Positions 24,275 to 60,193 of a stretch of DNA of 64,000 nucleotides are shown piece by piece. Under the pieces are notes generated by a model, which worked only from the letters and a program-made list of their open reading frames with translations, was not told the origin of the DNA and did no database searches. A program made the translations under genes and the position numbers. The DNA is taken from IMG/VR virus record IMGVR_UViG_3300028920_000035, positions 64,001 through 128,000 of that record. One strand, given 5' to 3'. Each line of letters begins with the position of its first letter. Position 1 is the stretch's first letter. Source of the stretch: a virus.

Positions 24275-24284
24275 TTCCTCTTGT
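24273..24284 (+). promoter_or_regulatory. Class B element GATTCCTCTTGT, 15 nt before ATG 24300
   Basis: Same motif and spacing as at 56933, 48129 and 25357(-). Confidence 0.6.
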
Positions 24285-24299
24285 GGGTCGGGTCTGGTG

Positions 24300-24875
24300 A
24301 TGGCCTATCGCTATGACCGTCGGACGGCGGCCGGGCCCATTCCCCTTGACAAGGGTGATATCAAGGAGCTGGCGGACCGCATCCTGAAGAAGCTGCCTCT
24401 ATACCTCAAGTTCCGTGACGACTACATGGACACTCCCATGCAGAGGGCGCGGGGGTACAATCCCAACCGTTGGCAGTACGAGGTTGAGGAAGGTTTCTCG
24501 ACGACCAACGTGCGCAACCACCCGATTCAGGTCGAGGTACATGTTGGCTTCAAAAAGCCTGAAGTTGCGTGGGGTGGGCGTGACTATGTCACCGGGGGAG
24601 CGGTTTCGTCACGATGGTATGGGGCGGATCGACGCGGCCGGGGGCGCGGCTTTGGTCTGCACACCAAGCTGACCGTCAACTCCACGCAATTTGTCGAACA
24701 GGCGTTGAAAGCATCAGCAACCTGGAAGCGCATTCAAGGCGCATTGAATCCCCACAACGAGCGCAAGATTCGAGAAGCCGTGTCACGGGCCCTGGTGCGT
24801 GAATGGCCACGTCTACAAGAGCTGTACCCTCAGGACCCTGACGACGAGTGGGACGAGACGCTCAACCTACCCTAG
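24300..24875 (+). CDS. Hypothetical protein with N-terminal YDRRTAA tag (candidate virion cargo)
   Basis: Starts MAYRYDRRTAA, similar to MTYDYRIAA of 60638. Confidence 0.6.
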   Translation: MAYRYDRRTAAGPIPLDKGDIKELADRILKKLPLYLKFRDDYMDTPMQRARGYNPNRWQYEVEEGFSTTNVRNHPIQVEVHVGFKKPEVAWGGRDYVTGGAVSSRWYGADRRGRGRGFGLHTKLTVNSTQFVEQALKASATWKRIQGALNPHNERKIREAVSRALVREWPRLQELYPQDPDDEWDETLNLP

Positions 24876-25329
24876 CGACTAGCTGCCGTTGTTTGATTTC
24901 GCCGAGCAGCTCGCGAGTGGCACGCATCAAGGCCATCCCTGCGACCTCAGGGGCGGACTTCTTGACGACCTCTACTCGCTTGTCAAGCTGGGGGCGCCGG
25001 TCGAAGTCGAAGGGTACATAGGAAACCAGAACCTGGGCAGCGCGGGGTACTGAAAGGGCAATAGAAAAGGCGTCCAGGTGGTGACGTCCGGTAAAGAAGT
25101 AGTAGACCACACCACGGGACTCGCTCGCTCCCAGCTGGTAGCGCTCCCCGGTAGCCTTCGAGATCATGAACATAAAGCGCTCAAGCATAGCGTTGAGGCT
25201 CAGCTTGGCTTCGACGAACCCCTCGCCTGGGTCAAAGGCAACACGCGTACGAACCCAGTTGGGTACCTCCAGCGTCGGACGAAGTCGGTGAAGGTAGTAG
25301 CGGGCGGCGACTCTCTTTGCGATGCTCAT
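24862..25329 (-). CDS. Hypothetical protein with N-terminal IAKRVAARY tag (candidate virion cargo)
   Basis: Start reassigned to ATG 25329 (MSIAKRVAARY); class B element 16 nt upstream. Confidence 0.65.
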   Translation of the reverse strand: MSIAKRVAARYYLHRLRPTLEVPNWVRTRVAFDPGEGFVEAKLSLNAMLERFMFMISKATGERYQLGASESRGVVYYFFTGRHHLDAFSIALSVPRAAQVLVSYVPFDFDRRPQLDKRVEVVKKSAPEVAGMALMRATRELLGEIKQRQLVARVG

Positions 25330-25345
25330 CACCGTAGCGAGCGGA

Positions 25346-25357
25346 ACAAAAGATTGT
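25346..25357 (-). promoter_or_regulatory. Class B element ACAATCTTTTGT, 16 nt before ATG 25329
   Basis: Reverse complement of acaaaagattgt. Confidence 0.55.
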
Positions 25358-28329: not shown

Positions 28330-29285
28330 CCGACGAGCTGTGCCCCCGTTGTGGAAAGGCGCCCATTGAAGGGTGTCGGGGGAAGGGGTTCATCCTGAAG
28401 GAGTCCGCCACTGGAGAGACCTCGCGGACTTGCCCGAACATCTTGATCGGACGCTTCTACGCAAAGTGGCAGCGAACCTTGGGGCAGGATGCTCAGCCTA
28501 TGATCGACATTCCGCCCGACAAGCGGTATCGGGAGTCCCCCCTCTACGTGAAGGGGGAGATCGACCTGACTCGGAACAACCTGCTCATCACTGGGTGTGC
28601 GTGGATTCGCTTCTTGAACCACCTGCGCTGGGTTCTGCTTGTGAAAGGTCTTGACTTTCATGCGCGGACCACAACGGATGCCCGCATCCAAAACGTGTTT
28701 GTCGGAGCTGAGGCCACGAAGGGCAGTCCCGACAACAAACACGAGTTCCTCACCACAAACCGGTCCCTTTACGACCACGCGGCTCCGCCGGATCTGCTGA
28801 TTATTCGACTAGGGGTGTTGAGCTACCGGTACAAATCAGCTCCTGGTGCTTTACTGGATACATTGCGTATCAGGGAGTCGCTGCACCGCCCCGTTTGGCT
28901 AGTGGAAATCCCAGGCCGCCCCTTCGAGGATTGTGCTTCTCATGACGGGGACGTTGAGGTGGAAATCAGCCGATTCCCTCGACTGGAGCTTGGAGCCGAT
29001 GACCACGACCCGAGCGCCCTTGACATGACCGAGGGGGAAGACCTGTTGGGAGAATTGGGTGAACCCGAACCCATAGACGAACCCGTAGACGAGCCGATGG
29101 GAAGGGTCGAGGAAGGAGTCGAAGAAGACGAAGAAGACGAAGACGAAGACGACAAAGAAGAAGATGAAGAGGACCTTTGTGGCGAAGATAGTCCGATCGG
29201 CGGTCCTTCTAACCCCTGGGCCCGCGGTCGGGGTTATCCAAAGAAGCGAGGGGGAGGGGGAGGGGGAGGGGGAGGTCCAATATGA
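28326..29285 (+). CDS. Degenerate DnaC/IstB-like helicase-loader homolog with N-terminal Cys cluster and acidic tail
   Basis: CPRC..C..TCP; NLLITG (eroded P-loop); DLLIIRLG (cf. DLLILDDLG); immediately upstream of dnaB. Confidence 0.5.
   Translation: MTDELCPRCGKAPIEGCRGKGFILKESATGETSRTCPNILIGRFYAKWQRTLGQDAQPMIDIPPDKRYRESPLYVKGEIDLTRNNLLITGCAWIRFLNHLRWVLLVKGLDFHARTTTDARIQNVFVGAEATKGSPDNKHEFLTTNRSLYDHAAPPDLLIIRLGVLSYRYKSAPGALLDTLRIRESLHRPVWLVEIPGRPFEDCASHDGDVEVEISRFPRLELGADDHDPSALDMTEGEDLLGELGEPEPIDEPVDEPMGRVEEGVEEDEEDEDEDDKEEDEEDLCGEDSPIGGPSNPWARGRGYPKKRGGGGGGGGGPI
29250..29275 (+). repeat. (GGGGGA)4GG G-quadruplex-capable tract overlapping the dnaB RBS
   Basis: Four G5 runs separated by single A; GGAGG at 29271-29275, ATG at 29282. 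Confidence 0.85.
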
Positions 29286-32017
29286 AGCGACTACTCCGTG
29301 GTATCATTGCCTTCGACGACAAGACCCCTATGCACTTGTTGGTGGCCAATTTCCGCCGCCTTCGCACGAGCGGGTATCAGTGGCAGCCCACCGACAAGCA
29401 GATCTTCGACTTCTGTGCGGACCACCTGCACCGCTACATGGAGATGCCATCCGTTCGTAGTCTGGTCGACTACTACGAGGTAGCCCACGACACCGAGGCG
29501 TTGGAGCGACTCAAGGACATCTCCAGCGCACAGCTCTACACGGACAGTGGGTATGCCCGTCTACTCGACGACGAGCTGGAGAAGCAGGTCCGCGTCAAGA
29601 TGCGGGCCCTCGTCAAAGAAACCAATGAGATCCTCGAAAGGGGGCTGACCTTTGGGGAGGGGCAGAAAAAGCGGCGCGTCCAAGGACCACGTGAGGCACT
29701 GGTGCATTTCACCGAGAAAGGGCATGACCTCCTACCCCCGGTCGGAAACGCCCTGACCCGTGGTGACCTACGCGATACTGTTGAGTGGGCTCGTGAACGC
29801 TACCACGAGGCCGAGATCAACAAAAGCAAGGTTTACGGCGCTTTCATGGGCCTCAACCACGTGGACACCCAATGCCATGGGTGCAAGCGCGGCGAGCTGT
29901 GGCTCCATGCAGCTTTCCCAGGCGAGTTGAAGACCGCCACAGCCCTGAACTGGGCCTACCACCTCGTCACGCGGTATAGGCACAATGTCTTCTATGTCAA
30001 CTTGGAGATGAAGTACGAGCAGGTCATGACACAGGTCTATGTCCTGCACTCATCACACGCCAAGTGGGGGCGCCCCCCGCTCGACTATCGCAAGGCCCGT
30101 GATGGGGAACTGAGTCCCAAAGACAAGGATTTTTACTTCGAAGTTCTCAACGACTTCGAGAGCAATCCCGAGTACTGTCGGTTCGAGCTTTGGTGCCCGG
30201 ACCACAACGTGACGATTCAGTCGACTCGGACCGAAGCTGAGACACTCCATCGTAAGATGGACGTGGGAATGACGTTCATCGACCACGGAGGCATCGTGAC
30301 GCCGCCTCCGGATCAGAAGGGGAAGGGTACTACCGAAGCTCTGAACGCGGTGATTCGAGAAACCAAGAAGTTTGCCCTGCATTTCAACAATGGCGAGGGG
30401 ATGGCGATCTGCATGCTGTTCCAGATCAACCGCTTGGGGAAGGATGACGCCGACAAAAACGAGGGTCGCTACAAGATGAAAGCGTTGTCATACGCCAATG
30501 AGTGCCTAGTTGAAGGGACGTTGGTGCGAACGGCCAACGGCCTTGTCCCCATTGAGTGCGTCCCGAAAGGTATGCGCGTTTGGAGCAGTACGGGCTGGAA
30601 GACGGTTCAGGCTCGCTTGGACAATGGCATTCGCGAAACTGTTGAAGTGCGTACCTCTGGAGGTCAAGCAATTCGAGTAACCCCAGACCATTTGTTTCGG
30701 ACGTTGACACCAGAGGGCAAGGTTGGGTGGACCGCTGCCGCGGAGTTGAGGGGGCGGTGCGTGCTATCTGACCTGGTGACGTCCTGGGTGTCTGGAAAGG
30801 CAGTCACATTACCACCTCTAGTTATCCAGAAGTATGAGAAGCCCTCAGGAGAGCAGAGCACACCTTTGCAGACCCCTAAGGTCATGACTCCAGAGCTTGC
30901 GTACCTGCTGGGCGCTCACGACGGCGACGGCCTAGCATTGGACGCCTATCGTGTAGGCTGGACGGGCAACCTCGAAGAGAGGGCCGTGTGCTGCCAGATT
31001 CAAACCGCATTTAAGGCTACGTTTGGGCACGAGATCAAGGAGACTAACTGTCCCTCACGGCCTGGTTCGTTTGAACTGACTAAATGGTCAAAGCCCTTGA
31101 AACGTTGGTGCCTTGAGGTTGGCATGGACCGTCAGCCCTGTATTAGCCCCTACGTGCTGCAAGCAGGGTCGGAAGTCCAGTGCTCGTATCTACGAGGCCT
31201 TTGGGATACGGACGGTAGCATCAACAATCAAGGTGTCTTGTCGATCAACATGGCCGCTGTCAAGGAGCCTCTTCTACGACAGGCCCAACTGCTGCTTGCG
31301 GGGTTGGGCATCGCCTCAACGTTGCGCCCTGGAAAGGACCGTTGCCTATTGTGGATCACGTCACAAGATGCGCGTGACCGGTTTGCTGCTGTCATTGGGC
31401 TCTCTGAGTCTTGGAAGCATCGTCGTCTACAGCTACAGGCCCGTAAACGACCCTTGGAAAAGGGAACCTGGCCCCTAGGCGAGGTCTACCTGAAGCTGTA
31501 CGAACGCTATGCACGCAAGCGTGGATGCCTCGACGGCATGGTCTTCCACCGCACTTGCTCGGTGGCAGCAACACAGGTGCGAAAAGGCCGACGGGACGTC
31601 CCTCAAGGGGCGTTGGTCAAGCTCTTGAGTGCCCTTGGGGGTGTTTGTGACGATCAGGTCGATTTCTTGAAGGCATTGGTTCTCAACTGCCGCCCCCAAA
31701 TAGTGGAGAGTGTCACACCTGCCGGTAAGGCCCCAGTGTATGACCTGGATGTGGGAGGAGACCACGAATTCTCTGCCGGAGGGCTTCTCGTTCACAATTG
31801 CGAACGGTCGGCGGACTACATCACCACGACGTACCTGAACGACGAGCTGCGAGAGAGCGGGGAGACCATCATGTGCAATCTGAAGAACCGGGACAATCCG
31901 ATCTTCAACCCCATCATCTTGAACATCGACTGGGGTTCGCGGCGCCTCTACGACCGGTCTGTGCCCGGGGAAGACGACGCTGTCGAGGATGCTGATCTGA
32001 TGACAGCCATGGCCTAG
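29282..32017 (+). CDS. dnaB: DnaB-like replicative helicase with intein
   Basis: RGELWLHAAFPGELKT (Walker A), NLEM, FIDH, FQINR, ANE|CERSAD, LKNRD. Confidence 0.88.
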   Translation: MKRLLRGIIAFDDKTPMHLLVANFRRLRTSGYQWQPTDKQIFDFCADHLHRYMEMPSVRSLVDYYEVAHDTEALERLKDISSAQLYTDSGYARLLDDELEKQVRVKMRALVKETNEILERGLTFGEGQKKRRVQGPREALVHFTEKGHDLLPPVGNALTRGDLRDTVEWARERYHEAEINKSKVYGAFMGLNHVDTQCHGCKRGELWLHAAFPGELKTATALNWAYHLVTRYRHNVFYVNLEMKYEQVMTQVYVLHSSHAKWGRPPLDYRKARDGELSPKDKDFYFEVLNDFESNPEYCRFELWCPDHNVTIQSTRTEAETLHRKMDVGMTFIDHGGIVTPPPDQKGKGTTEALNAVIRETKKFALHFNNGEGMAICMLFQINRLGKDDADKNEGRYKMKALSYANECLVEGTLVRTANGLVPIECVPKGMRVWSSTGWKTVQARLDNGIRETVEVRTSGGQAIRVTPDHLFRTLTPEGKVGWTAAAELRGRCVLSDLVTSWVSGKAVTLPPLVIQKYEKPSGEQSTPLQTPKVMTPELAYLLGAHDGDGLALDAYRVGWTGNLEERAVCCQIQTAFKATFGHEIKETNCPSRPGSFELTKWSKPLKRWCLEVGMDRQPCISPYVLQAGSEVQCSYLRGLWDTDGSINNQGVLSINMAAVKEPLLRQAQLLLAGLGIASTLRPGKDRCLLWITSQDARDRFAAVIGLSESWKHRRLQLQARKRPLEKGTWPLGEVYLKLYERYARKRGCLDGMVFHRTCSVAATQVRKGRRDVPQGALVKLLSALGGVCDDQVDFLKALVLNCRPQIVESVTPAGKAPVYDLDVGGDHEFSAGGLLVHNCERSADYITTTYLNDELRESGETIMCNLKNRDNPIFNPIILNIDWGSRRLYDRSVPGEDDAVEDADLMTAMA
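30503..31798 (+). mobile_element. Intein with LAGLIDADG endonuclease in DnaB motif H4 (432 aa)
   Basis: CLVEGTLV...YDLDVGGDHEFSAGGLLVHN, +1 Cys; YLLGAHDGDG and YLRGLWDTDGS. Confidence 0.93.
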
Positions 32018-32322: not shown

Positions 32323-32983
32323 GGACTACGAACGTCAAGCCGCCGCTGAGGATGCGGTACACCAAGCCTGGCTAGATTGGCTGAAGCAGCGGGTCGATAA
32401 CATCCACAATCATGTCACGGCCCACTCCATCCTTCAGCGGTTTGGCGTCGAGCTGGTAGCTTCGGACGACGACGAGGAGCAGTTCCGGTGCCCCTTCCAC
32501 GGACTGGATCGGAAGCCTAGCGCCCGGGTGTACCCTTCGAGCCCGTTGGGACCGAGCCACGCCTGGTGCTTCGTCTGCCGTGAACGGTGGGATGCCATTG
32601 CCTTGTGGCGGAAATTCGGTGACTCCAGCGCGAAGTTTTCGCAGTCCGTGCGCGAGATTGAAGACGCCTACGGATTGACGAGGCCCCCACGTCCGAATGG
32701 GTCCCAGCTGCCTGTGCCGCTGGACCCCAGCATCGAGGCAGCCAAGCTAGCCAAGGGGGAATTCGACCGCCTGCTGCTTGCGGTAGACCGCCGCCTGAAG
32801 TCGACCCGGAGCGTCTTCAGAGCGCTGGATGATCTCCAAGGATTCCTGGCCTTGGGGCAGGTAGCTGACAAGCTTGCGGGCGCGGTCGAGCGGGGCAAGG
32901 CTGACCCGGCCAAATCGATGCCAACGTTACGGCGTCTGCTGGACAAGATCGCGGAGAAGGTGCGGTCCGTACCGGAGGGGTGA
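32315..32983 (+). CDS. Stand-alone primase-type CHC2 zinc-finger protein
   Basis: GTG start after AAGGAG; CPFH..DRKPSA.VY...AWCFVC..WDAI; no TOPRIM motifs follow. Confidence 0.8.
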   Translation: MARDYERQAAAEDAVHQAWLDWLKQRVDNIHNHVTAHSILQRFGVELVASDDDEEQFRCPFHGLDRKPSARVYPSSPLGPSHAWCFVCRERWDAIALWRKFGDSSAKFSQSVREIEDAYGLTRPPRPNGSQLPVPLDPSIEAAKLAKGEFDRLLLAVDRRLKSTRSVFRALDDLQGFLALGQVADKLAGAVERGKADPAKSMPTLRRLLDKIAEKVRSVPEG

Positions 32984-33420
32984 TGCGGCAAGTCCAAATC
33001 AACTTGAGGGAACGTGGTGGCGATGTGCAGGTTTTGCTCATTTCCTCACATCGAGGGTGCTGGGAAGAGCCTTGGGACTTGTTGCGTGGCACGGCCCCTG
33101 GGGCCCTGCTGAGCGTCGTTTTGCGAGAAGATGTGGAGCACGCTCTCCACGGTCTGTCTCAGCCTTTGAGTGCCGCCCTGGGCCTACCCCCAGAGGGGTG
33201 CCTGCTCAAGCTCCCGAAGACGGCTCGGCGCTGTCATCGAGAGCAAAAGTGCCCTCTTTACGACCCACGGGTCTGCCATCTCCAGAGTGGCAAGCTGCCG
33301 TTGAGTTTCGAGCCCGCCGGCTTCGACGACGACCGGCTCCGGCTCCAAATCGCGGAACTGGTCCGGTACTGGCGGGAAGAGGTGTATGTAGTAGTCGTCG
33401 AGGAGCCAGAGCCCGCATGA
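32983..33420 (+). CDS. Hypothetical Cys-containing protein in the replication operon
   Basis: TGATG and ATGA coupling on both sides. Confidence 0.55.
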   Translation: MRQVQINLRERGGDVQVLLISSHRGCWEEPWDLLRGTAPGALLSVVLREDVEHALHGLSQPLSAALGLPPEGCLLKLPKTARRCHREQKCPLYDPRVCHLQSGKLPLSFEPAGFDDDRLRLQIAELVRYWREEVYVVVVEEPEPA

Positions 33421-36400
33421 GTGACGATGACGACGACCTGATGGCTGACGTGATGGCCGAGATCCTGCCCACTGCTGCCAAGGAGGAGCAGAAGGCACCT
33501 GATCTGGATTCTGACGAAGCGGCTGATCTGGACGATTTCATGGCCGGTATGAACCTCCAGCAGGAGGACACCATCGACCCTGAGCTGCTCAAGCCGTGGA
33601 TGAAGTACCACAAGATGGAGCTGGTCCAGGACATCGGTCGGGTGAAGGAGGTCATCAACGGCGCCATCGAGTTCGGGACCTGCTCGCTCGATCTTGAATC
33701 CACGGGGCTTGACACCCGCATCGACTTCGACAGTGGGGGGAAGCCCCACACCAAGTCCAAGGTGGTGGGCTACTGCGTCGGCTACGACGGCAACGGTTAC
33801 TACATCCCGGTGCGGCACAATTTCGACCCCATCATGGGCGAAGAGAATCCCAACGTCTCGCCCGCTCTGGTGGACCCCGAGATCACGCGCCTGTGTTACG
33901 CGGCTCAGCCGGTCCTGACGGAAGAAGGCAAGGCCAACGACCCTTTGGCGTCCAACGACATCGCCGAACCCGGTAAGGTCAAGCTCCTGTTCTGGCATGC
34001 CAAATTCGACCAGGAAATGCTGTACCCCGTCACAGGTATAGACTTCTGGCACCCGGAATCCTACGAGGACGGGATGCTCATGTTCTACTGCGTCTATAGC
34101 GACGACATGAGCTACGAATTGAAGCAAAAGGCCAAGCAGTTCCTGCGCATCAAAGACCCGGAAACAGGGGAAGAGTACCCCTACGAGATGATCAAGTACG
34201 ACAAGCTGTTCCCGAAGGGTACCCCCAAGGAGAACCGTCGTATCCACACGCGCTACCCCCGCCCCGACAACGAGGTCACGCGCTACGGTTGTTCAGACGC
34301 CATCTGCACGGAGCTGCTCTGCAAGCTCCCCTGGCTGGTCGAGAGGCTCGAAAAGACCAACCGAGGAATCTACCGTTTGGAGAAGATGACGACTCAGGCC
34401 GTGCGCATCATGGAACGGTCCCGAGTGCTCATCGACAAGGCGGCCATCGAGGCCGTGCGCCAAGAGGCCATCACAGCTCTTAAGGAAGTTGAGAAGCAGA
34501 TCAAAGGCATCGCTGAGGGGGTCGGATTCCACGACTTTAATCCAGGCTCAACGGAACAGTTGGCATCCCTGCTCTTTGACAAGAAGTGGCTCAACCTTGA
34601 ACCGAAGCCTGATAAGACCACCGAAGGGCAGTACAAGACCGACGCCAAGACCCTGGAAAAGTTGATGGAGCGCCCCGGCGCCCCGGCGATTCTCAAGCTG
34701 TCCCTGACCTACCGCCAGATCCAGAAGGTCCAGGGTACCTACCTCGACAAGATGGTCGAGAACGTTGACGAGTTTGATCAGCTACGGTTCGATTTCAAGC
34801 AGCATGGTGCTGCTACAGGCCGCTTCTCGGCGCCTCAGGAGCAGAAGGAGGAGCGTGCGTTTGGTCGGGAGGGCTACTCGGGCATCCCAATTCAAGGGAT
34901 CCCCGCTCGCGACAACCCAAAGAAGCCAAAAGTGGCGGGCTCGCTCCGAAAGGGTTTCATCGCCCGGCCCGGCTACGTCATCGTGAAGGTGGACTACGCG
35001 GGGCAGGAACTGCGAATCGTCACCAACCTGTCGGGCGAGCCCGTTTGGGAGAAGGAGTTCCTCGAAGGCACGGGCGACCTCCATACCATCACGGCGAAGG
35101 CGTTCTTCCCTGGTCTCCAGCGAACCGACCCCGACTTCAAGGTCAAGCGAACCTCGGGCAAGTGTGTCCACCCCGACACCCTCGTCTGCGGCGTCAAAGG
35201 CTATCGGCCTCTACGTAGCCTGACGCTATTCCCAAAGGAAAGTGACCGATTTTTGGGGGCCTCGCCTCCCGACGTAGAGATCGACGGGAACCCCGTCGTC
35301 GATACCTACAACGGCGGAGTGAAGAAGCTCTACCATGTCGTGACGAGCAAGGGCATCGTCACTTGCACTGCCAACCATCGTTTCAGGCTTGCGAACGGTT
35401 CTCTGGTTCGAGCGGGGGACCTCCAAAAGGGACAAGAACTAGCTCCCGTTGAGCTTCCCTCGTTGAGGGGGAGGGTAGGGGCTTCACGTCGATTAGGTCT
35501 ATGGAAGGGTGTGCCGAGGGGTGAGTATAGACTTGGACTTCCGGAATGCTACTTTGCAGGGCTGTACCTGGGAGATGGTACGGTCAGCAATTCGGGGGCA
35601 CGGTTGACCCATGGTCGAATAGGGAAAACCTGCCCCCTGGGCGTACCCTACAAGGAGTGGCAGCAAATCTTGCTCAAGGCCTGCACTGACGTAGGGCTTG
35701 ACCCCACTCCTGAGGCAACAAGCCTCTACCTAGGTAGCCGAGTAGTGGTACGCTATCTAGAAGCGTTGGAGTTGGTCGTACCTCGACCGGGTACAGCTCA
35801 AGGTCGCATGAAGAACCTGCGGGTGCCCTCGTGGGTGTTAGAGCAGGGGCAGAAAGGCTTCATGGCATTCCTGGCAGGGCTCTTAGATACTGACGGGTCG
35901 GTATCTCACCAAATGCATACTATCGAGGTCACAACCAAGGATTTCATCTTCGCGGGACAGTTGGCAGCTCTGGCACAAGCCTGTGGGCTGCCCTTGAGCG
36001 TTGAACCAACTTTCAACAAGACCTACCGCAAGCACTATGCCCGACTGCACCTGACGGTTGGGTCTGCGTGGTCCTTCCGTAAGCATTTGCGCCATCCAGG
36101 CAAGGTTCTTCGGCTAAAGGCCCCTCAAAAGCAGTCAAGTATAACCAACGAGAACATCGTCAAGAAGGTGTTTCCCGCTGGTAAGAGCGCTTGCCTCGAC
36201 GTGACTATGGGCACAGTCGACCACCTGTACCGTGCCAACGGGATGTTGACTCATAATTCGGCCAACTTCTCGCTCATTTATGGCGGCGGCGTTCAGGCGG
36301 TCATGCGTGCCACGGGTTGCGATAAGACGGAGGCGGCTCGCAAACTCGGCAACTTCCACGACAGCGTGCCGAAGTTTGCCAAGTGGGTGAAGAAGCAGCA

Positions 36401-38702
36401 CGCGGGGGTGAAGAGGCATCTGGGCGTGCGCACAGCATTCGGCCGTTTCATCGCCATTCCAAATGCAGCGGTGAAGGTTGGTGACGTCAAAAAGGACTAT
36501 TGGGGTCGTCCCATCCTTAAGGAAGGGCAAGAGCAGCGGTTAACCGATAAGGACGTCCGCATCATGCGGTCCTCGTCCGAGCGAGTCAGCACGAATTACC
36601 CCATTCAAGGCTGTCTCGATTCAAGATCCTTGGTTAATACCCAAGATGGTTGGGTTTCTATCGGTAGTCTTGTTGAGGCTGGGCAACCTTTTGTAGTGTG
36701 GACCGGCTCTCGATGGGCCGAAGCAACAGCCCATGATATGGGCCCCTGCGAGCTGGCTGAGGTAAAGCTCAAGGACGGCACCATTGTTCGCTGTGACACT
36801 CGCCACAAGCTGCTGGTCGTCAGCGACGCTGGCTATCGGTGGGTCGAGTATCAAGACCTTGAGCCTGGCATGGCGGTAGCCACAGCGCTTTGCGAGCCTG
36901 TAGAGTATGAACCTTCACCTCTACCGTCTATGAGCCAACGCGAACGGTCCCGCGCCCGACCCCAAATCAACGAACTAGAAGCGTTCTGGTATTGGATGGG
37001 GCGCTACGTGGGGGACGGTCGGATCGACCATCGGGGAGGTATACAGTTCTTCTTTGGGGAGCATGAACGTGAGGCTGTCGACCGGTGCCTTCAATTTTGG
37101 GAGGTATTTGGCCTCAACTCAACGTGGGGCCTCAAGATACACACGCCGCATAAAAAGGAGTCCTCTCGATACACGGTCAATGTGTGGAGCGTGGACCTTC
37201 TGGATTGGCTTAAAGAGTTGGGGTTTGAGCCCGCCACAGCTCACACCAAGCGATGCCCGCGCCGCATCTTCGGAGAGACTTTGGCTCACCGTCGAGCGTT
37301 TTTACGCGGCGTCATGGCGTCGGATGGCCGCAAGCCTCCGCTTGTTACGGCCAAAGGCAACCCCTACAACGTCCACCTCTGTCAGCGGCCGCTACTTGAG
37401 GACCTCAAGCTGTTGTTCCGCAGCGCTGGGGTCGAATCGGCCTTGCGAGGCCCTTACCGTAGTGGTGAAGACCAGAACGGCGACGATACGATCAGCTACC
37501 GTCTGGATCTGAACCGCCGGATGTATGAGCGCCATGTCGTGGGCTGCACAGACGTTCGACATCCGAAGTTCTGCGACATGTTTGCGCCTCAGTTCTTGGT
37601 CGGTGAGCTTCTGAAAGCAGGCTCCTGGACACGTGCAGACTTCCCCGATGAGTCGAGCTATAATCTGTACTTACGCCTCAGAGTTGGAGGACGTGTCACG
37701 GTTTACACTTTGCAACGTCTCTGCCAACTGCTGGGCGTCAAGTTGCCGCTCCCTGTCTATGGGTTCAAGCGAATTGTCACAAAACAGGCACTAGGGTGTG
37801 TAGAGCACACCTACACGCTGAGTGTTCAGGACAAGCTGCATCGCTTCGAAGCTGATGGGGTCATCACCAAAAACTCGGGCGCCGACATCTGCAAGATCGC
37901 ACTCGTCAAGTGCGTCAAGGCGTTCCACAAGCGTGGATGGTTGCGCAACGGCGGCGACGATTCCGTGCGGATGCTGATGACCGTCCACGACGAGATCGTG
38001 TTCGAGATTCGTGAGAGCCGGCTGATGGATGCCGTGCCAGTTATCAGCGAGGCCATGGAAAGCCCGGACAAGATGACGCGGCCCGCGTGGAAGGTGCCCC
38101 TGGTGGTGGAGCCCCTGGTGGGTCACAGCTGGGACGCTAATGTTGATTGGCTATCCATGATCAAGGGTGTGGACGAGGACGGTAAGCCCTATGAAGTGCC
38201 TGAATGGCTGCTCCCGATGATTGACCTGGAGCGAATTCGCAAGGACGAGGCCGCACGTTTGGAGCGCAAGGGTCAGCCTGCCCCAGTTGTCGCCAAGCCC
38301 CAGCCCACCAGTACGCCCGCGGGCGTACCCCCAGCAGCCGCCGCCACGACGGTGACCACAGCGTCTGCCCCAGCCAAGGTCAAGACGAATAGTTTCCCGA
38401 AAGAGACGAAGGAAGCCTACAAAACGGGCTCAATTGCCACGTTTGCTGTGACTCGGGAGCACCTGACACCAGATTCGGTGTGGATGATTGGCAATGCTCA
38501 ACTGAACTGCCACCCTGTACGGGTGGCAGCCGAGCGGGGTTGTAGCAACCGCTGCAACCTGCGCCTGATCACTATCGAGGGGGACCTCCTGATCGACCCG
38601 GCGTTCAACAGCGACGGACGATGGGACATTGACCCAGAGGCGTTCAGTCGCAAAATGAGGGAGCACAACTTCCCCTACGACTTCCGGATTGACGACAAGT
38701 GA
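33417..38702 (+). CDS. polA: Family A DNA polymerase (3'-5' exonuclease + polymerase) with two inteins
   Basis: Exo I SLDLESTG, Exo II HAKFD, Exo III YGCSDA; ATGRFS; motif A VDYAGQELRI; motif B R..GK|SANFSLIYG; motif C TVHDEI. Start at ATG 33417 with GAGGAG RBS. Confidence 0.95.
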   Translation: MSDDDDDLMADVMAEILPTAAKEEQKAPDLDSDEAADLDDFMAGMNLQQEDTIDPELLKPWMKYHKMELVQDIGRVKEVINGAIEFGTCSLDLESTGLDTRIDFDSGGKPHTKSKVVGYCVGYDGNGYYIPVRHNFDPIMGEENPNVSPALVDPEITRLCYAAQPVLTEEGKANDPLASNDIAEPGKVKLLFWHAKFDQEMLYPVTGIDFWHPESYEDGMLMFYCVYSDDMSYELKQKAKQFLRIKDPETGEEYPYEMIKYDKLFPKGTPKENRRIHTRYPRPDNEVTRYGCSDAICTELLCKLPWLVERLEKTNRGIYRLEKMTTQAVRIMERSRVLIDKAAIEAVRQEAITALKEVEKQIKGIAEGVGFHDFNPGSTEQLASLLFDKKWLNLEPKPDKTTEGQYKTDAKTLEKLMERPGAPAILKLSLTYRQIQKVQGTYLDKMVENVDEFDQLRFDFKQHGAATGRFSAPQEQKEERAFGREGYSGIPIQGIPARDNPKKPKVAGSLRKGFIARPGYVIVKVDYAGQELRIVTNLSGEPVWEKEFLEGTGDLHTITAKAFFPGLQRTDPDFKVKRTSGKCVHPDTLVCGVKGYRPLRSLTLFPKESDRFLGASPPDVEIDGNPVVDTYNGGVKKLYHVVTSKGIVTCTANHRFRLANGSLVRAGDLQKGQELAPVELPSLRGRVGASRRLGLWKGVPRGEYRLGLPECYFAGLYLGDGTVSNSGARLTHGRIGKTCPLGVPYKEWQQILLKACTDVGLDPTPEATSLYLGSRVVVRYLEALELVVPRPGTAQGRMKNLRVPSWVLEQGQKGFMAFLAGLLDTDGSVSHQMHTIEVTTKDFIFAGQLAALAQACGLPLSVEPTFNKTYRKHYARLHLTVGSAWSFRKHLRHPGKVLRLKAPQKQSSITNENIVKKVFPAGKSACLDVTMGTVDHLYRANGMLTHNSANFSLIYGGGVQAVMRATGCDKTEAARKLGNFHDSVPKFAKWVKKQHAGVKRHLGVRTAFGRFIAIPNAAVKVGDVKKDYWGRPILKEGQEQRLTDKDVRIMRSSSERVSTNYPIQGCLDSRSLVNTQDGWVSIGSLVEAGQPFVVWTGSRWAEATAHDMGPCELAEVKLKDGTIVRCDTRHKLLVVSDAGYRWVEYQDLEPGMAVATALCEPVEYEPSPLPSMSQRERSRARPQINELEAFWYWMGRYVGDGRIDHRGGIQFFFGEHEREAVDRCLQFWEVFGLNSTWGLKIHTPHKKESSRYTVNVWSVDLLDWLKELGFEPATAHTKRCPRRIFGETLAHRRAFLRGVMASDGRKPPLVTAKGNPYNVHLCQRPLLEDLKLLFRSAGVESALRGPYRSGEDQNGDDTISYRLDLNRRMYERHVVGCTDVRHPKFCDMFAPQFLVGELLKAGSWTRADFPDESSYNLYLRLRVGGRVTVYTLQRLCQLLGVKLPLPVYGFKRIVTKQALGCVEHTYTLSVQDKLHRFEADGVITKNSGADICKIALVKCVKAFHKRGWLRNGGDDSVRMLMTVHDEIVFEIRESRLMDAVPVISEAMESPDKMTRPAWKVPLVVEPLVGHSWDANVDWLSMIKGVDEDGKPYEVPEWLLPMIDLERIRKDEAARLERKGQPAPVVAKPQPTSTPAGVPPAAAATTVTTASAPAKVKTNSFPKETKEAYKTGSIATFAVTREHLTPDSVWMIGNAQLNCHPVRVAAERGCSNRCNLRLITIEGDLLIDPAFNSDGRWDIDPEAFSRKMREHNFPYDFRIDDK
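35163..36257 (+). mobile_element. PolA intein 1 in motif B (365 aa), LAGLIDADG
   Basis: CVHPDTLV...HLYRANGMLTHN, +1 Ser; FAGLYLGDG and LAGLLDTDG. Confidence 0.93.
36612..37874 (+). mobile_element. PolA intein 2 at NYPIQG|SGAD (421 aa), LAGLIDADG
   Basis: CLDSRSLV...HRFEADGVITKN, +1 Ser; WMGRYVGDG and LRGVMASDG. Confidence 0.92.
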
Positions 38703-48131: not shown

Positions 48132-48140
48132 TCTTTTTGT
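48129..48140 (+). promoter_or_regulatory. Class B element TAGTCTTTTTGT, 16 nt before ATG 48157
   Basis: Motif and spacing match. Confidence 0.55.
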
Positions 48141-48156
48141 GGGACGTGCCCCAGTG

Positions 48157-48921
48157 ATGACCGTCGCAAGCCGTGTAGCCACCCGCTGGAAAGCCGCCAA
48201 CGTTGTCCCCTTTAGGGGCCGTCCCAGAGGTCCTCAGGTGGCCATTGGAAGCCGCAAGTACGTTTTGAGCGACTACTGGCCCATGGGAACGGCTGGTGAC
48301 GGTGAGGCTCCCGCAGCAGGAGCCCGGGTCATCGACGTGGGGGGCGACAAGTTCCGCTGGTTGTGGGCCTATGACACTGACAAGCAGGTTCTCGCCATGT
48401 GGCGCTACACAGACGGGGATGAGAAGCACTACGAGAACGCCCACCGTGCGGCTCAGCACATTCACAAGCTGGAGAAGCGAGGGCAGCTCAATCGTGTCAC
48501 CAATGCCGAGTTTCGGATAATCGAGCGCGAGATGAGCCGTCGCTATGAGGATGTCATCAAAACGCTTCGGGAACACGCCCGGTCTCTCGGCGGCGATTGG
48601 CAGGAGCAGGTCAACGCCATCGCCCGTGATTTCTTCGACCACAAGGTCCGCCCCCTCATCGAGCGAGCCCTGAGTGACGCCGCCCGTGGTGCCGTCCCGA
48701 TGGGGTTCAGGTTCAATGAGCGTATACCCCAGAGCCGTGATCAGCAGATTCGGGCTCACATCGTCAGTCAGATGGTCCACCAGCGGTTCAACGAGCGCTT
48801 GATCGAGGACACGATGCGCACCCAAGGGCTCGATCCCGAGATGAGAGGGGTGGATAACCAAGCTGCCTACTGGGCAGTGAGCGAGCTCAGACAAGATGTG
48901 TACGAAGAGTACCTACGGTGA
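48157..48921 (+). CDS. Hypothetical protein with N-terminal VASRVATRW tag (candidate virion cargo)
   Basis: MTVASRVATRWKAA is in register with the starts of 56960 and 25329(-). Confidence 0.7.
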   Translation: MTVASRVATRWKAANVVPFRGRPRGPQVAIGSRKYVLSDYWPMGTAGDGEAPAAGARVIDVGGDKFRWLWAYDTDKQVLAMWRYTDGDEKHYENAHRAAQHIHKLEKRGQLNRVTNAEFRIIEREMSRRYEDVIKTLREHARSLGGDWQEQVNAIARDFFDHKVRPLIERALSDAARGAVPMGFRFNERIPQSRDQQIRAHIVSQMVHQRFNERLIEDTMRTQGLDPEMRGVDNQAAYWAVSELRQDVYEEYLR

Positions 48922-56010: not shown

Positions 56011-56796
56011 ATGGAAAAGGACCGACTACTTTACACCATCTGCTACATTGATGTCGAGACCACGGGCCTCGATGAGGATGTGCATGAGATCACCGAGATA
56101 GGCGCCATTCGCGTGAACTACCCGCGAGACTTCTTCGACGGGGGCGAGCCCGAAGAGGTCAGCCGCTTGTCAGTCAAGGTCAAGATCAAGGGCGTCGTCG
56201 ACCCCAGCGCAGGCTATCTGAACCATTTCGACTCTGAGGTGTGGGCTACGGAAGGGGTCGAGCTGCACGAGGCCATGTACAAACTCTTCCCGCTCATCAA
56301 GGAGGCCAACCTTGGTGGTTGGAACGTGGACTTCGACCGACGACGCATCTGGAATGCTTTCCGTCGGTTCAACTGGCAGTGGCCCTCCGGAACCGGCCAC
56401 CGTTTGCTGGACGTGCAGTCACTCGCTCGACCTTTCATTGCGGCCTACTTCCGAGAGGAGAGGCACTTGCGCAAGATCCGGTTGGAGGAAGTAGCCAGAG
56501 CGATGAAACTCGTCGACCGCGAGAATGAAGACCAGCTGCACTCGGCTCTGTTCGACTGTGAGCTGGCTTGGAAGATCAACGACCTGCTGGCGCATGCCTA
56601 CTACCGAGGAACTCTTGAAACAGGGTTGATCACTTTACCGTCACAATCGGCGACCCCTCTCCCAGTAGAAAATGTACCTGACCCTTCAGCCCCGCCCCCA
56701 GTAGAAAATGTACCTGACCCTTCAGCCCCTCCTGATCGGGACACCCTTGCATCCGGTCTTACACCAGTTGTAGGTAAGCCTGCGACACTGCCGTGA
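56011..56796 (+). CDS. DnaQ-like DEDDh 3'-5' exonuclease
   Basis: YIDVETTGLD, GWNVDFD, LLDV, HSALFD. Confidence 0.88.
   Translation: MEKDRLLYTICYIDVETTGLDEDVHEITEIGAIRVNYPRDFFDGGEPEEVSRLSVKVKIKGVVDPSAGYLNHFDSEVWATEGVELHEAMYKLFPLIKEANLGGWNVDFDRRRIWNAFRRFNWQWPSGTGHRLLDVQSLARPFIAAYFREERHLRKIRLEEVARAMKLVDRENEDQLHSALFDCELAWKINDLLAHAYYRGTLETGLITLPSQSATPLPVENVPDPSAPPPVENVPDPSAPPDRDTLASGLTPVVGKPATLP
56661..56729 (+). repeat. 33-nt duplication (36-nt period) in the exonuclease tail
   Basis: CCCAGTAGAAAATGTACCTGACCCTTCAGCCCC at 56661 and 56697. Confidence 0.9.
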
Positions 56797-56932
56797 GGCC
56801 GCTCCCTTCCATTCAGAGGACTAGGCGTCCAGGAGCCACCTGGGTGGGGGCCTGTCCAAGGCCGTCTGCATCGGGTGTGGTTGTCAAGGTATTTGGTCAG
56901 CCACACAGCACCCAAAATCGGACACAAGCGAA

Positions 56933-56944
56933 TGATTTTCTTGT
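56933..56944 (+). promoter_or_regulatory. Class B element TGATTTTCTTGT, 15 nt before ATG 56960
   Basis: Motif and spacing match; no SD. Confidence 0.6.
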
Positions 56945-56959
56945 GGCCTCGCTTCATGC

Positions 56960-59900
56960 ATGGGTATCGCCGCGCGGGTTGCCGCTCGCTACAAGAGCAA
57001 GAAGACGACCGACAAGGGCAACGTCATCTACGAGTATAGCACTGCTCAGGTCCAGCATCGCAACCGCGAAAAAGCTAAACGCCTGGAAAAGCTGGAGTCC
57101 AACGTCACCAAACTGCGGACTCAAGTTGAGAAGGACCTCAGCGCCAAGGACGTCAAGAAGCGGCAGACCGCACTCGCGGTGGGCCTCATTGATCATACGT
57201 TTGAACGAGTGGGGAACGATGAAAGCGCTGACGAAGGTCACTTTGGCGTCACCGGCTGGCAGAAGAAGCACGTCACGTTCTCGGGCGGCAAAGCGACCCT
57301 TCAATACATCGGCAAGTCGGGGATCGAGCAGGAGAAGACCGTCACCGACCAGAAGCTAGTCACCGAGCTGAAACGGGCCGCAGACGCCTGTGGGGACGAT
57401 TCAGACTGCCTGCTGGCGGATGTGAGCGCAGAGGACGTCAACGCCTATCTCAAGCCCTACGATGTGACAGCCAAGGACCTGCGGGGCTTCCATGCCAACC
57501 GGGTCATGCGAGAGAAGCTCCAGACCGCGCGCAAGGGTCAGCTTCCCAACGACAAGAAGAAGCGAGAGGAGAAGCTCAAGGCTGAATGGAAGAAGGCGCT
57601 TGAGGCCACGGCCAAAGCGGTGGGGCACGAGCCTTCAACGCTGGGTAACCAGTATCTCGTGCCGGGACTCCAGGACGACTTCATGAGGGACGGCGTGGTC
57701 AGCGAGCCCGGCAGCAAGACCGCAGGCGTCGTCAAGCTCGACCTCGCGTGGGTCGAGAAGATGCGCAAGGACTTCTTGACCCTGCTCAAGAACATCCCCC
57801 ACATCAAGACCTTCAAGGAGGCCCATCGAGTCCGCGAGGGCCTTCGGGTCTACCGCGAACAGTTCGACAAGCTATTCCACGAGCGGTTCCTCCGGCACAC
57901 CCTCAAGTACGACTACGAGGACTACGGGATCAGCGAGGACTACGCCAAATACTACACCAAGCAGTTGGGTACTCCGTCGTGGGACTTCTACATCGCGCTG
58001 GCAGAGATGCCGATCGGCTTCGTGGACGACTACTGGGACGAAGACCGCCTGATGGCCCGCTTCACGCAGGAAGCCCCCAAGTGGGAGACTCGCCTCAAGC
58101 GCAAGGCCCAGAAGTTCTGGAAGGTACTCCGAGACGTGCTCCAGGACTTCAAGAACCGGGAGCGGGAGATCCAGGTCAAGACCCTGGACGTGGAACAGGT
58201 GACGCTCGAAGGGTTCCGCGTCCAGGTGCGGGGGTTCGACCCGAGCGACGACATTGACGTCGAGTCACTGGAGGTCTTCAAGAAGGGGCTGAGGATCTAC
58301 CGACGCAACGCGGCGGCTCGCTACCCCCGCTTGCTCAAGGACCAGGTGCCGATCGTCTACGACTGTGAAGTGAATCTGGACAAGGGCGGGACCTACAGTC
58401 ACAGCGGCCTGATCACGTTCTATGCCTCGGCGGTCATCAAGGAGCCCCCCGCTCGTGCCGCCCACATCCTTGCTCACGAGATGGGGCACCACGAGTGGCG
58501 TCTGCTCGATGGGAAGGCACGGGAGTTCTGGGAGACGGCCATCGCAGGCGACTACGGCGACATCGACCTAGCCGAAGTTGTAGCCAAGTGGCCCAGGGGG
58601 GCGTGGGCCTTCGACTTCACCAGGTACATGGCCGACACCGACCCTGTACTAGCCCTTCAGATGGAGGGCCTCGTCCACAGCCAGAACCACGAAGAGCTGA
58701 ACACCAAGGAGGACTTCCAGGCCCTGTTGAGCAGCGGCCAGCGGACGCTGCGGGTGCCCAAGACGCCCATCACGGGGTACGCCAACAAGAACCCCCAGGA
58801 GGCGTTCTGCGAGGCTGTGGGTCTGCTGGTGGCCTACGGACCCCGGGCCCTCCACGAACGCGTACGCGGCTGGCTGGGCATCATCCTGGGCAACGAGGTC
58901 AAGGTCGCGGCCCGCGTGGCCGCCCGCTACCGCGCGGCCTTTGACGGCTCGACGCCGTTCGGACCGATGGACCCCGACAGCGTGATCAAGCGGGCCACCC
59001 TGGCCCATCGCGTGGCGCGCCGCTTCATCGCCGACAGCTACGGCGACCCGAAGACCTACCTCGACGCGATGACCGAGGCGCTCCGACGCTACCAGATGTA
59101 CCGTGACCTCTTGCCGACGATGCGCAAGGCAGAGCGGTGGGTCGACCAGAACCCGGGCGTGCCCCCGGGCACCGCCCTGACGGGGGACGGCGAGCTGGAC
59201 AAGGTGCTGCACAACTTCCGGATGTTCCTCGTGAAGTATGCCTACGCCGTCCAGGCCATGTATCCGACGATGTGGCGCGCAGGCGGGTCCAAGGTCTTCC
59301 TTGCGCTGCTCCAGCAGTACAGCTTCTCCGACCGGCGCCTACGGTCAAGGGTCGAGCAGGGGGCCAAGTTCTATGGCAAGACACGCTCCAGGAAGCCTCG
59401 GCCCGCCCAGTCTGTAGCCGTCTTCGACAAGGCGTTCACCCAGTATCTGGAGCACCTCGAAACCATCCGCGATGCACTGAAGAAGGGCGTCCCTCATGGT
59501 GCTGAAGGTGCAGCCCAGGCGAAGATCCCCGCGGGCCCCTTCACCCTGGTCAACACGGGCGGCTTCGACGACAAGACGATGGATCTCGTCGCCAAGCTCG
59601 CCGTCAAGGCCGCGGGCCTGCTCAAGCAGCACGGGTACGGCCGTGCCGTCTACGGCGACATCCACATCAGCAACACGGTGGGGCGGTCGTCAAAGGTGTT
59701 GGCATTCTACTCGGTCAACACCGACGAGATGTTCGTTCGGGCCAACCTCAAGGGGAAGTTCGACAGCGCGCTTCACACCATCCTGCACGAGCTGGGGCAC
59801 CGGTACGAGAAGTTCGTCGCTGCGAACGACATCCGCGCCATCTACCGCCGCCTGAGCAACCAAACGTCGGACCAGCGCCGGTCCTCCGACCTGAAGTACC

Positions 59901-60193
59901 CCAAGGAGGGGGAGACCGCCGTCGAGCGCGGCAAGACCTTCGTCGTGTCAGGCACCGAGTACACGGGACGTGGCGTCCGCGTGAATCTCAGGCTTCAGGA
60001 CGACGCGACCAAGCAGTTCCACACGACAATCGACGGCTGGTACGCGATGACCGGCCAGGTCAGCCCCGCAGGCGCCTTCATCAGCAAGTACGCCCGCACG
60101 GACCCGAGCGAAAACTTTGCGGAGATGGTCGCCCACCACTGTCTTGGCACGCTGCCCCAGGAGCAAGTCGAGCTGCTCGAAGCGATCATCTGA
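56960..60193 (+). CDS. Type IB topoisomerase domain fused to two zincin (HExxH) metallopeptidase-like domains; RVAxR-punctuated polyprotein
   Basis: TopoIB pentad ERVGN / GKSG / KDLRGFHAN / VGHEP / NQY; HEMGH...EAFCE; HELGH...ENFAE. Confidence 0.85.
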   Translation: MGIAARVAARYKSKKTTDKGNVIYEYSTAQVQHRNREKAKRLEKLESNVTKLRTQVEKDLSAKDVKKRQTALAVGLIDHTFERVGNDESADEGHFGVTGWQKKHVTFSGGKATLQYIGKSGIEQEKTVTDQKLVTELKRAADACGDDSDCLLADVSAEDVNAYLKPYDVTAKDLRGFHANRVMREKLQTARKGQLPNDKKKREEKLKAEWKKALEATAKAVGHEPSTLGNQYLVPGLQDDFMRDGVVSEPGSKTAGVVKLDLAWVEKMRKDFLTLLKNIPHIKTFKEAHRVREGLRVYREQFDKLFHERFLRHTLKYDYEDYGISEDYAKYYTKQLGTPSWDFYIALAEMPIGFVDDYWDEDRLMARFTQEAPKWETRLKRKAQKFWKVLRDVLQDFKNREREIQVKTLDVEQVTLEGFRVQVRGFDPSDDIDVESLEVFKKGLRIYRRNAAARYPRLLKDQVPIVYDCEVNLDKGGTYSHSGLITFYASAVIKEPPARAAHILAHEMGHHEWRLLDGKAREFWETAIAGDYGDIDLAEVVAKWPRGAWAFDFTRYMADTDPVLALQMEGLVHSQNHEELNTKEDFQALLSSGQRTLRVPKTPITGYANKNPQEAFCEAVGLLVAYGPRALHERVRGWLGIILGNEVKVAARVAARYRAAFDGSTPFGPMDPDSVIKRATLAHRVARRFIADSYGDPKTYLDAMTEALRRYQMYRDLLPTMRKAERWVDQNPGVPPGTALTGDGELDKVLHNFRMFLVKYAYAVQAMYPTMWRAGGSKVFLALLQQYSFSDRRLRSRVEQGAKFYGKTRSRKPRPAQSVAVFDKAFTQYLEHLETIRDALKKGVPHGAEGAAQAKIPAGPFTLVNTGGFDDKTMDLVAKLAVKAAGLLKQHGYGRAVYGDIHISNTVGRSSKVLAFYSVNTDEMFVRANLKGKFDSALHTILHELGHRYEKFVAANDIRAIYRRLSNQTSDQRRSSDLKYPKEGETAVERGKTFVVSGTEYTGRGVRVNLRLQDDATKQFHTTIDGWYAMTGQVSPAGAFISKYARTDPSENFAEMVAHHCLGTLPQEQVELLEAII

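Follow-up and report, generated by a model that had tools for sequence, protein, structure and literature searches.

A stretch of 64,000 nucleotides of viral DNA, referred to here as the window (positions 64,001 to 128,000 of the IMG/VR virus record IMGVR_UViG_3300028920_000035), contains on its plus strand an open reading frame (ORF; 56960-60193) that is open throughout and encodes a protein of 1077 amino acids (aa). By its sequence, this protein joins a type IB DNA topoisomerase (TopoIB; the Topo module) to two putative zinc peptidases of the zincin type (modules M2 and M3), and it carries copies of a short peptide tag at its N-terminus and between the two zincins (Table 1). Our comparisons support the view that the gene arose by end-to-end fusion of three individually tagged units, and the best reading that we can offer for the fusion product, to which we assign an even chance, is that of cargo, or of early enzymes, addressed by the tags. 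The record to which the window belongs is 147.6 kb long, and we regard it as a fragment of a huge phage because its completeness, as estimated with CheckV, is only ~31%; the source of the fusion gene is an uncultured huge phage. An initial annotation of the window had suggested that separately tagged cargo genes were fused and that their product is processed into injected enzymes. Its observation is confirmed and its interpretation partly supported by our sequence comparisons: the fusion of tagged units is borne out, and processing and injection stay proposals.

The relatives of its modules bear on the origin of the gene. BLAST searches against 120 full-length relatives place the module borders at aa 1-250, ~253-660 and ~680-1077, where they coincide with the tags, and they find Topo and M2 in either order. 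A search for the same domains as separate tagged genes was successful for all three modules: stand-alone tagged genes exist for Topo (~265-350 aa), M2 (~410-420 aa) and M3 (~400 aa), with hundreds of metagenomic relatives, and M3 alone gave 547 matches at E ≤0.001 among 50%-identity cluster representatives. Split and fused forms are found in a neighbourhood that relatives share, in which a gene for a CxxCxxCC protein lies upstream, and MethyltransfD12, response-regulator-like and RNase HII genes lie downstream; among the arrangements examined, the Topo-M2-M3 gene of the window is the most fused form. It is because split and fused forms share one syntenic locus, and because stand-alone tagged genes are abundant, that we consider the fusion of separately tagged genes supported. 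An end-to-end fusion also predicts the M2/M3 junction as it was found, with the C-terminal tag of M2, a spacer of 18 residues and the N-terminal tag of M3 in succession. The initial annotation had taken TopoIB to be normally a stand-alone enzyme. This does not hold here, as 36 of the 52 distinct Topo architectures in IMG/VR (80 loci, contigs up to 618 kb) are ORFs of at least 500 aa; fused TopoIB is the rule in this phage lineage.

The SKTA linker with K253, the HEMGH...EAFCE and HELGH...ENFAE motifs and two RVAxR tags had all been placed correctly by the initial annotation, whose inventory of tags lacked a third copy, the N-terminal AARVAARY at aa 4-11. This octapeptide is identical to that at aa 650-657, and the third-position bases of the two copies differ in five of the eight codons; because of these codon differences we conclude that the repeat is kept at the level of the protein, and a DNA-level repeat as the origin of the tag was rejected on the same grounds. 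Internal translation starts at the tags were likewise rejected, as V647 has the codon GTC, at which translation would not start, and nothing resembling a Shine-Dalgarno element is evident. That the tags are not a product of chance follows from their frequency in relatives: of 99 Topo modules, 74 have the strict motif [RK][VILM][small]x[RKE][YFWH] in the 40 residues that precede them, compared with ~6% expected. Free-standing M2, M3 and Topo proteins start with M-x(2-4)-h-A-x-R-V-A-x-R-[YF] or with the alternative leader M-x-Y-S-Y-D-R-R, and in many of them the tag is present again in the last 10-20 residues. In many stand-alone relatives of M2 and M3, a leader of the Y-x-Y-D-R-R type takes the place of the RVAxRY tag, and some C-termini show it as well; a gene of the window (24300-24875, +) starts with such an alternative leader, MAYRYDRRTAA.

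The consensus of the tag is a helix, [ILV]-A-x-R-V-A-x-R-[YFW], often with K-x-A before it, and an element of a hydrophobic residue, K or R, any residue, and A or S precedes 32% of the internal and C-terminal tags, compared with 3.7% of random windows, a ninefold enrichment. Relatives possess a full K-x-A element plus RVAxR[YF] tag at the Topo/M2 junction, which in the window gene has decayed to S-K-T-A. The motif logo, with hydrophobic residues at positions -3, +1 and +5, adjacent alanines and two arginines, suggests that the tag would form an amphipathic helix. AlphaFold2 shows the tags, situated on linkers, as short helices modelled with low to moderate confidence, and the C-terminal tag of M2 is helical, has a low predicted local distance difference test (pLDDT) score and is not packed on its domain. 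The terminal positions of many tags fit better with a docking helix than with a scissile site, and if cleavage occurs, the K-x-A linker is a better candidate site than the tag itself. A predicted complex between the M2 core (aa 256-640) and the junction peptide (aa 641-700) had a score of 0.01, which, obtained without controls, counts neither way.

The tag is not confined to the fusion gene. Within the 147.6-kb record it is present on five proteins, at the N-termini of three gene products and inside or near the C-terminus of two. Two unrelated genes of the window, 48157-48918 (+) and 24865-25329 (-), open with it (MTVASRVATRW and MSIAKRVAARY); no Pfam family matched either of them, and the ESM Atlas returned no usable match for the 254-aa protein encoded at 48157. 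An ORF of 261 aa on the other strand competes with the former gene. Past the end of the window, the same record encodes an 813-aa protein (L005:9423-11861, +) with the internal tag IAARVAAEY, directly followed by a gene (L005:11868-12512, +) for a 2H/LigT-like phosphoesterase with a weak match to Acb1, in which PKRVAARY is found near the C-terminus. In a 239-kb relative, the gene of a small GNAT-like acetyltransferase (L010:12757-13104, -) adjoins Topo-M2, and its product starts with the tag HTAARVAQRF. In full-text literature searches, neither the tag nor polyproteins with TopoIB were found to be described.

The tagged genes also appear to be set apart by the sequences in front of them. The T-rich motif T[TC]TTGT[GT][GC] lies 11-14 nucleotides (nt) before the starts of four tagged genes and of one gene for an Ig-like, probably structural protein of 424 aa, and it precedes no other gene of the 147.6-kb record; its copies in the window are at 56939-56946, 48135-48142, 25344-25351 (-) and 24279-24286. 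A different motif, CGGTGTA, lies ~10 nt before the genes for SNF2, a Ycf46-like ATPase and other non-tagged proteins; the replication genes carry CGGTGTA and not the T-rich motif. Neither class is accompanied by an obvious Shine-Dalgarno sequence.

By its profile and its catalytic pentad, the Topo module is a type IB DNA topoisomerase, for which ATP-independent relaxation by way of a 3'-phosphotyrosyl intermediate is predicted. It matches the Pfam family Topoisom_I (PF01028) over aa 32-227 (E 4e-27; 95.4 bits versus a cut-off of 23.7). In the phmmer alignment to the Deinococcus TopIB enzyme (2f4q), R83, K119, R175, H223 and Y232 pair with R137, K174, R239, N280 and Y289, which we take to be the catalytic residues of that enzyme. 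Together with Y24 and Y26, the pentad is invariant in an alignment of 29 sequences (the query and 28 free-standing relatives), in which the mean column identity is 52%; the complete pentad that the initial annotation had read from ~aa 12-250 therefore stands. Residues 18-20 of the query align to chain residues 64-73 of the poxvirus (2h7f) and bacterial (2f4q) enzymes, only the tag lies upstream, and no Pfam match to an N-terminal domain was found for the Topo module at E ≤1. Because the alignments to solved enzymes start this far into the chain, all that is left of the N-terminal DNA-binding domain is its last hairpin; most of this domain is absent, with the tag standing in for the remainder. 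The phage module thus has in common with the poxvirus (vaccinia/variola) and bacterial TopIB enzymes (2h7f, 1a41, 2f4q) the catalytic domain and the R-K-R-H-Y pentad and differs from them in lacking most of the N-terminal domain, in being preceded by a tag and in its fusion to peptidases. Its core comprises ~235 aa and free-standing relatives 263-280 aa, or ~345 aa with a C-terminal extension, compared with 314 aa for the vaccinia enzyme.

AlphaFold2 models built from 41 homologues for M2 and 72 for M3 (pLDDT 92 each) give the two modules the same plan, with a helical bundle at the N-terminus and a zincin core after it. The HExxH...Y...ExxxE set is invariant or nearly so in both alignments (HEMGH at aa 506-510 and EAFCE at 614-618 in M2; HELGH at aa 943-947 and ENFAE at 1051-1055 in M3), and because it is complete and conserved in each family, both zincins look catalytically competent, as far as sequence can tell. 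The two cores are homologous according to hhalign (probability 95.5%, E 1.6e-8). For the M2 bundle, the only matches in VIA-align were generic four-helix bundles. The best non-bundle fold matches of M2 were the anthrax lethal factor (LF; 1yqy, Z 9.5, root-mean-square deviation (rmsd) 3.4 over 158 aa) and the Pro-Pro endopeptidases PPEP-3 (Z 8.4) and PPEP-2 (Z 8.2), and those of M3 were PPEP-2 (Z 9.0, rmsd 3.3, 138 aa), LF (Z 8.9) and Peptidase_Mx (4l7a, Z 8.6). Since Z values of 8.2-9.5, with an rmsd of 3.3-3.6 over 138-158 residues, lie in the range that the tool calls 'middling', we read the LF and PPEP matches as resemblance in fold and not as family membership. In per-domain Foldseek searches, which the initial annotation had proposed, nothing in the PDB matched the M2 and M3 models at E ≤0.001, and the weak matches were nearly all zincins; it was the Z-scored search that pointed to LF and PPEP. 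At the sequence level, no Pfam family matched M2 or M3 above threshold, sub-threshold matches to Peptidase_Mx1/Mx being confined to the extreme C-terminus; no M34, SprT or Wss1 Pfam matches were found; and the M2 and M3 alignments, used as profiles against the sequences in the PDB, gave nothing meaningful and neither LF nor PPEP. Like the M34 zincins (the LF catalytic domain and the Pro-Pro endopeptidases; 1yqy, 6fpc, 9g0j), which are the top fold matches, M2 and M3 possess the HExxH...Y...ExxxE pattern; unlike them, they have an N-terminal helical bundle of their own and match no solved structure in sequence. M2 and M3 are paralogous putative zinc peptidases, each consisting, in the models, of a bundle and an LF/PPEP-like core.

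The company that these modules keep is that of the phage-type polyvalent proteins, for which packaging and injection, and also autoprocessing by their MPTase domains, have been proposed (Iyer et al., 2017; PMC5512222). Polyvalent proteins likewise carry several unrelated enzymatic domains on one polypeptide, here one TopoIB and two zincins, and their hub domain is a group of zincin peptidases unified with anthrax LF, which the LF-like fold of M2 and M3 resembles (PMC5512222). In relatives, on contigs of up to ~490 kb, the modules are fused to NUDIX, ART-PolyVal, InPase, PolyA_pol, 2H phosphoesterase, RNA ligase, ParB and SprT domains, among others, and in the relative P0068 M2 is joined to both ART-PolyVal and InPase; ART-PolyVal, InPase, 2H, NUDIX and ParB belong to the polyvalent repertoire (PMC5512222). 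It is because the fusion partners of the relatives are of this repertoire that we place the 1077-aa protein, by its sequence relationships, in the network of phage-type polyvalent proteins. A TopoIB is not among the domains discussed in that study ('topoisomerase' appears in a reference title only), nor is a conserved tag between modules (PMC5512222). For DdrB of phage P1, processing before packaging has been described (PMC5512222).

In the reading that we favour, the tag helix would act as a docking or addressing peptide that brings unrelated accessory enzymes to a common receptor, and this receptor would most likely serve capsid loading and delivery together with the DNA. The modules would be separated at the K-x-A linkers, with one of the zincins or the head protease making the cut. 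Once free, the topoisomerase would need no ATP to relax the genome as it enters or is transcribed early, as is the case for the poxvirus enzyme packaged in virions; for the fusion gene itself, we only infer that the tag docks, that the protein is loaded into capsids and cut, and what its topoisomerase does. Vaccinia TopIB is packaged in the virion and helps early transcription. In phage T4, a capsid targeting sequence forms a leader shared by the unrelated internal proteins IPI-III and Alt, an ADP-ribosyltransferase. The tag is likewise a short conserved peptide common to unrelated accessory proteins of one phage, and Alt-like ADP-ribosyltransferases are present among the tagged relatives, as in the T4 set; it differs, however, in sequence, and it is not strictly N-terminal, as it is found internally and at extreme C-termini as well. 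The cargo peptides of bacterial microcompartments and encapsulins are short amphipathic helices on flexible linkers, terminal or interdomain, that address unrelated enzymes to one shell. We liken the tag to these loading peptides by analogy, as there is no sequence similarity. The cargo reading is favoured because of the polyvalent repertoire, the precedents of T4, the poxviruses and P1 DdrB, and the T-rich upstream motif held in common with the Ig-like gene.

Several observations weigh against this reading. In contrast to polyvalent proteins, the Topo gene lies, as do its orthologues, amid replication and repair genes (DnaQ-like exonuclease, methyltransferases, RNase HII, Ku) and not head genes, and its syntenic position is conserved across phage records of 147 to 432 kb, which looks like a core function rather than variable cargo. 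The Pfam family MPTase-PolyVal did not match M2 or M3 at E ≤1. Searches of the ~31%-complete record for terminase (PF03237) and head protease (PF04586, PF03420) found none, the PF03420 control being silent as well. Moreover, tags at the extreme N- and C-termini cannot themselves be useful cut sites.

Among the alternatives, we consider as possible, although doubtful, that the gene encodes a self-processing polyprotein, packaged or not, in which M2 or M3 would recognise the RVAxR[YF] helix and cleave the K-x-A linker next to it. No partner of tagged modules is commoner than zincins of the M2 type, the end of M2 units is regularly P-G-x-V-K-x-A with the tag after it, and to this the ninefold enrichment of K-x-A upstream of tags, the autoprocessing proposed for the MPTase of polyvalent proteins (PMC5512222) and the seemingly intact active sites of both zincins can be added. 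Yet a tag in the first or last 10 residues of a stand-alone protein would be pointless as a cut site, many tagged proteins and loci have no M2 or M3 nearby, and in the monomer model the M2 tag is undocked on its own domain.

It is rather unlikely, and somewhat more so than self-processing, that the protein is an intracellular accessory enzyme of replication or transcription and not virion cargo, with the tag recruiting it and other enzymes to a shared scaffold or compartment such as a replication factory, the topoisomerase acting in the replication and transcription of the genome, and the fusion keeping the stoichiometry of its parts. The locus within a replication and repair region (PolA, DnaB, SNF2, DnaQ-like exonuclease, methylases, RNase HII), the synteny of Topo on contigs from 147 kb to 432 kb and the strong conservation of the Topo family noted above would all be accounted for by such a role. 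The domains with which the modules are co-fused in relatives, however (ART-PolyVal, InPase, NUDIX, 2H, CCA-adding enzyme, RNA ligase), are those of the injected polyvalent repertoire (PMC5512222), the core replication proteins of the record do not carry the tag, and the upstream motif of the tagged genes differs from that of the replication genes.

That the zincins are Wss1- or SprT-like proteases dedicated to the removal of trapped covalent Topo-DNA complexes appears very improbable: among the eight Topo loci of relatives that were examined, five have M2 or M3 fused to Topo or next to it, and M3 resembles Wss1 in fold (5xbn; Z 7.8, rmsd 3.5, 111 aa), but this match falls below those to LF and PPEP, no SprT or Wss1 family was recognised, M2 and M3 are much more frequent without Topo, as free-standing proteins or in fusions with unrelated enzymes, and Topo is often alone or in polyproteins without M2 or M3. 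Hardly credible is a tag without function at the protein level, serving as a DNA-level recombination linker or a recurring part of domain folds, for although modules are shuffled exactly at the tags and the tag abuts the Topo fold at a fixed spacing (RVAARYKxKK), identical octapeptides are differently encoded, the motif persists in relatives that are only 30-60% identical and is found at either end of unrelated folds, and the tag is detached and of low pLDDT in the M2 model.

In the INPHARED phage collection, tblastn found the Topo and M2 modules in LR745208.1 only, and weak, partial matches to M3 in LR745208.1 and in Virus Rctr197k (KX853510.1), both of which are uncultured. In LR745208.1 (485 kb), an ORF (L009:5476-7002, +) encodes a HAD-like domain (FDFDGTLF), a degenerate tag (ARNVAAKY) and then Topo. 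A survey of jumbo phages published in 2021 refers to phage-specific TopoIB solely in free form, as a gene of a few cultured phages, and by tblastn the cultured phages with TopoIB from this survey had no match to the Topo module described here. In a 163-kb relative, a NUMOD3 homing-endonuclease-like gene (L012:6971-7705, +) lies between a free-standing Topo and a tagged 963-aa M2 protein and may mark the split of an earlier fusion.

The PolA, DnaB and SNF2 genes of the window each contain an intein; those in the SNF2 helicase (25441-28329), the DnaB-like helicase (29282-32017) and the family A DNA polymerase (32874-38702; +) carry a LAGLIDADG endonuclease (Pfam Intein_splicing and LAGLIDADG). 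Very large ORFs (857 to 2433 aa) fill positions 1-22449 (+) of the window and continue upstream; they have no Pfam and almost no PHROG matches. Comparison of 20 ORFs of the upstream large-ORF region with PHROGs revealed no capsid, portal, terminase or protease; the families that were matched comprised one baseplate-hub-like protein, one DNA-binding protein, HNH/homing endonucleases and unnamed families. The upstream ORF L002:14532-16538 resembles a baseplate hub. An ORF of 188 aa in another frame (56793-57359, +) overlaps the first 400 nt of the topoisomerase gene; as it is the Topo frame that shows conservation at the protein level, this ORF is probably spurious.

Table 1. Features of the Topo-M2-M3 fusion gene (coordinates in the window) and arrangements of the modules in relatives.
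Feature	Residues (aa)	Position (nt)	Strand	Basis or remark
T-rich upstream motif TCTTGTGG, 13 nt before ATG		56939..56946	+	No Shine-Dalgarno sequence
Whole gene: tag, TopoIB, SKTA, zincin M2, tag, spacer, tag, zincin M3	1-1077	56960..60193	+	ORF translation; module borders via BLAST
N-terminal tag AARVAARY	4-11	56969..56992	+	Aligns with N-terminal tags of stand-alone TopoIB genes
Minimal TopoIB: last N-terminal-domain hairpin (Y24, Y26) and catalytic domain; pentad R83/K119/R175/H223/Y232	12-250	56993..57709	+	Pfam, phmmer, alignment
Degenerate Topo/M2 junction S-K-T-A (K253)	252-255	57713..57724	+	Motif position
M2 helical bundle	256-402	57725..58165	+	AlphaFold2 model, pLDDT 92
M2 zincin core (predicted): H506, E507, H510, Y607, E614, E618	410-647	58187..58900	+	41-sequence alignment, fold search
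Tag 2, V-K-V-A-A-R-V-A-A-R-Y (AARVAARY 650-657), C-terminal tag of M2	647-657	58898..58930	+	Aligns with C-terminal tags of stand-alone M2 and Topo-M2 proteins
Spacer between tags (18 residues)	658-675	58931..58984	+	Matches no conserved module
Tag 3, I-K-R-A-T-L-A-H-R-V-A-R-R-F (IKRATLAHRVARRF; HRVARRF 683-689), N-terminal tag of M3	676-689	58985..59026	+	Aligns with N-terminal tags of stand-alone M3 genes
M3 helical bundle	690-849	59027..59506	+	AlphaFold2 model, pLDDT 92; fold search
M3 zincin core (predicted): H943, E944, H947, Y1044, E1051, E1055	851-1077	59510..60190	+	72-sequence alignment, fold search
Relatives: Topo alone				Shared neighbourhood
Relatives: Topo-M2 fusions, 654-684 aa				Shared neighbourhood
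Relatives: Topo, then 714-aa gene, then x-M2-M3 protein				Shared neighbourhood
Relative, 3.8-kb contig: Topo directly followed by separate M3				Shared neighbourhood not seen; M3 55% identical to window M3
Relative, 163-kb contig: Topo, NUMOD3 homing-endonuclease-like gene, tagged M2 protein				Shared neighbourhood not seen

What the window adds is a series of split and fused forms at one locus, the paralogy and common plan of the zincins, the statistics of the K-x-A element and the context of a replication region. The Topo family represents a natural minimal TopoIB, with a core of ~235 aa and nearly no N-terminal domain, and is for this reason of use in enzymology, and M2 and M3 define zincin families without an above-threshold Pfam model whose active sites appear intact and which are candidates for the long-postulated enzymes that process polyvalent proteins. 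We put forward tentatively, with less confidence than the general cargo reading, that the RVAxR[YFW] helix, together with the Y-x-Y-D-R-R leader, constitutes a general addressing code, shared by uncultured huge phages of a large clade, by which a dedicated receptor loads a changeable set of enzymes into the capsid, and that the gene described here delivers a minimal TopoIB and two LF-like peptidases together with the DNA. If this is true, a topoisomerase injected by a bacterial virus would be known for the first time, and the cargo set would evolve by the shuffling of modules at the tags. If the tag is an addressing peptide, sequence alone would suffice to list the accessory proteins that are delivered or co-localised in hundreds of uncultured huge phages, and the tag would provide a portable handle to load foreign proteins.

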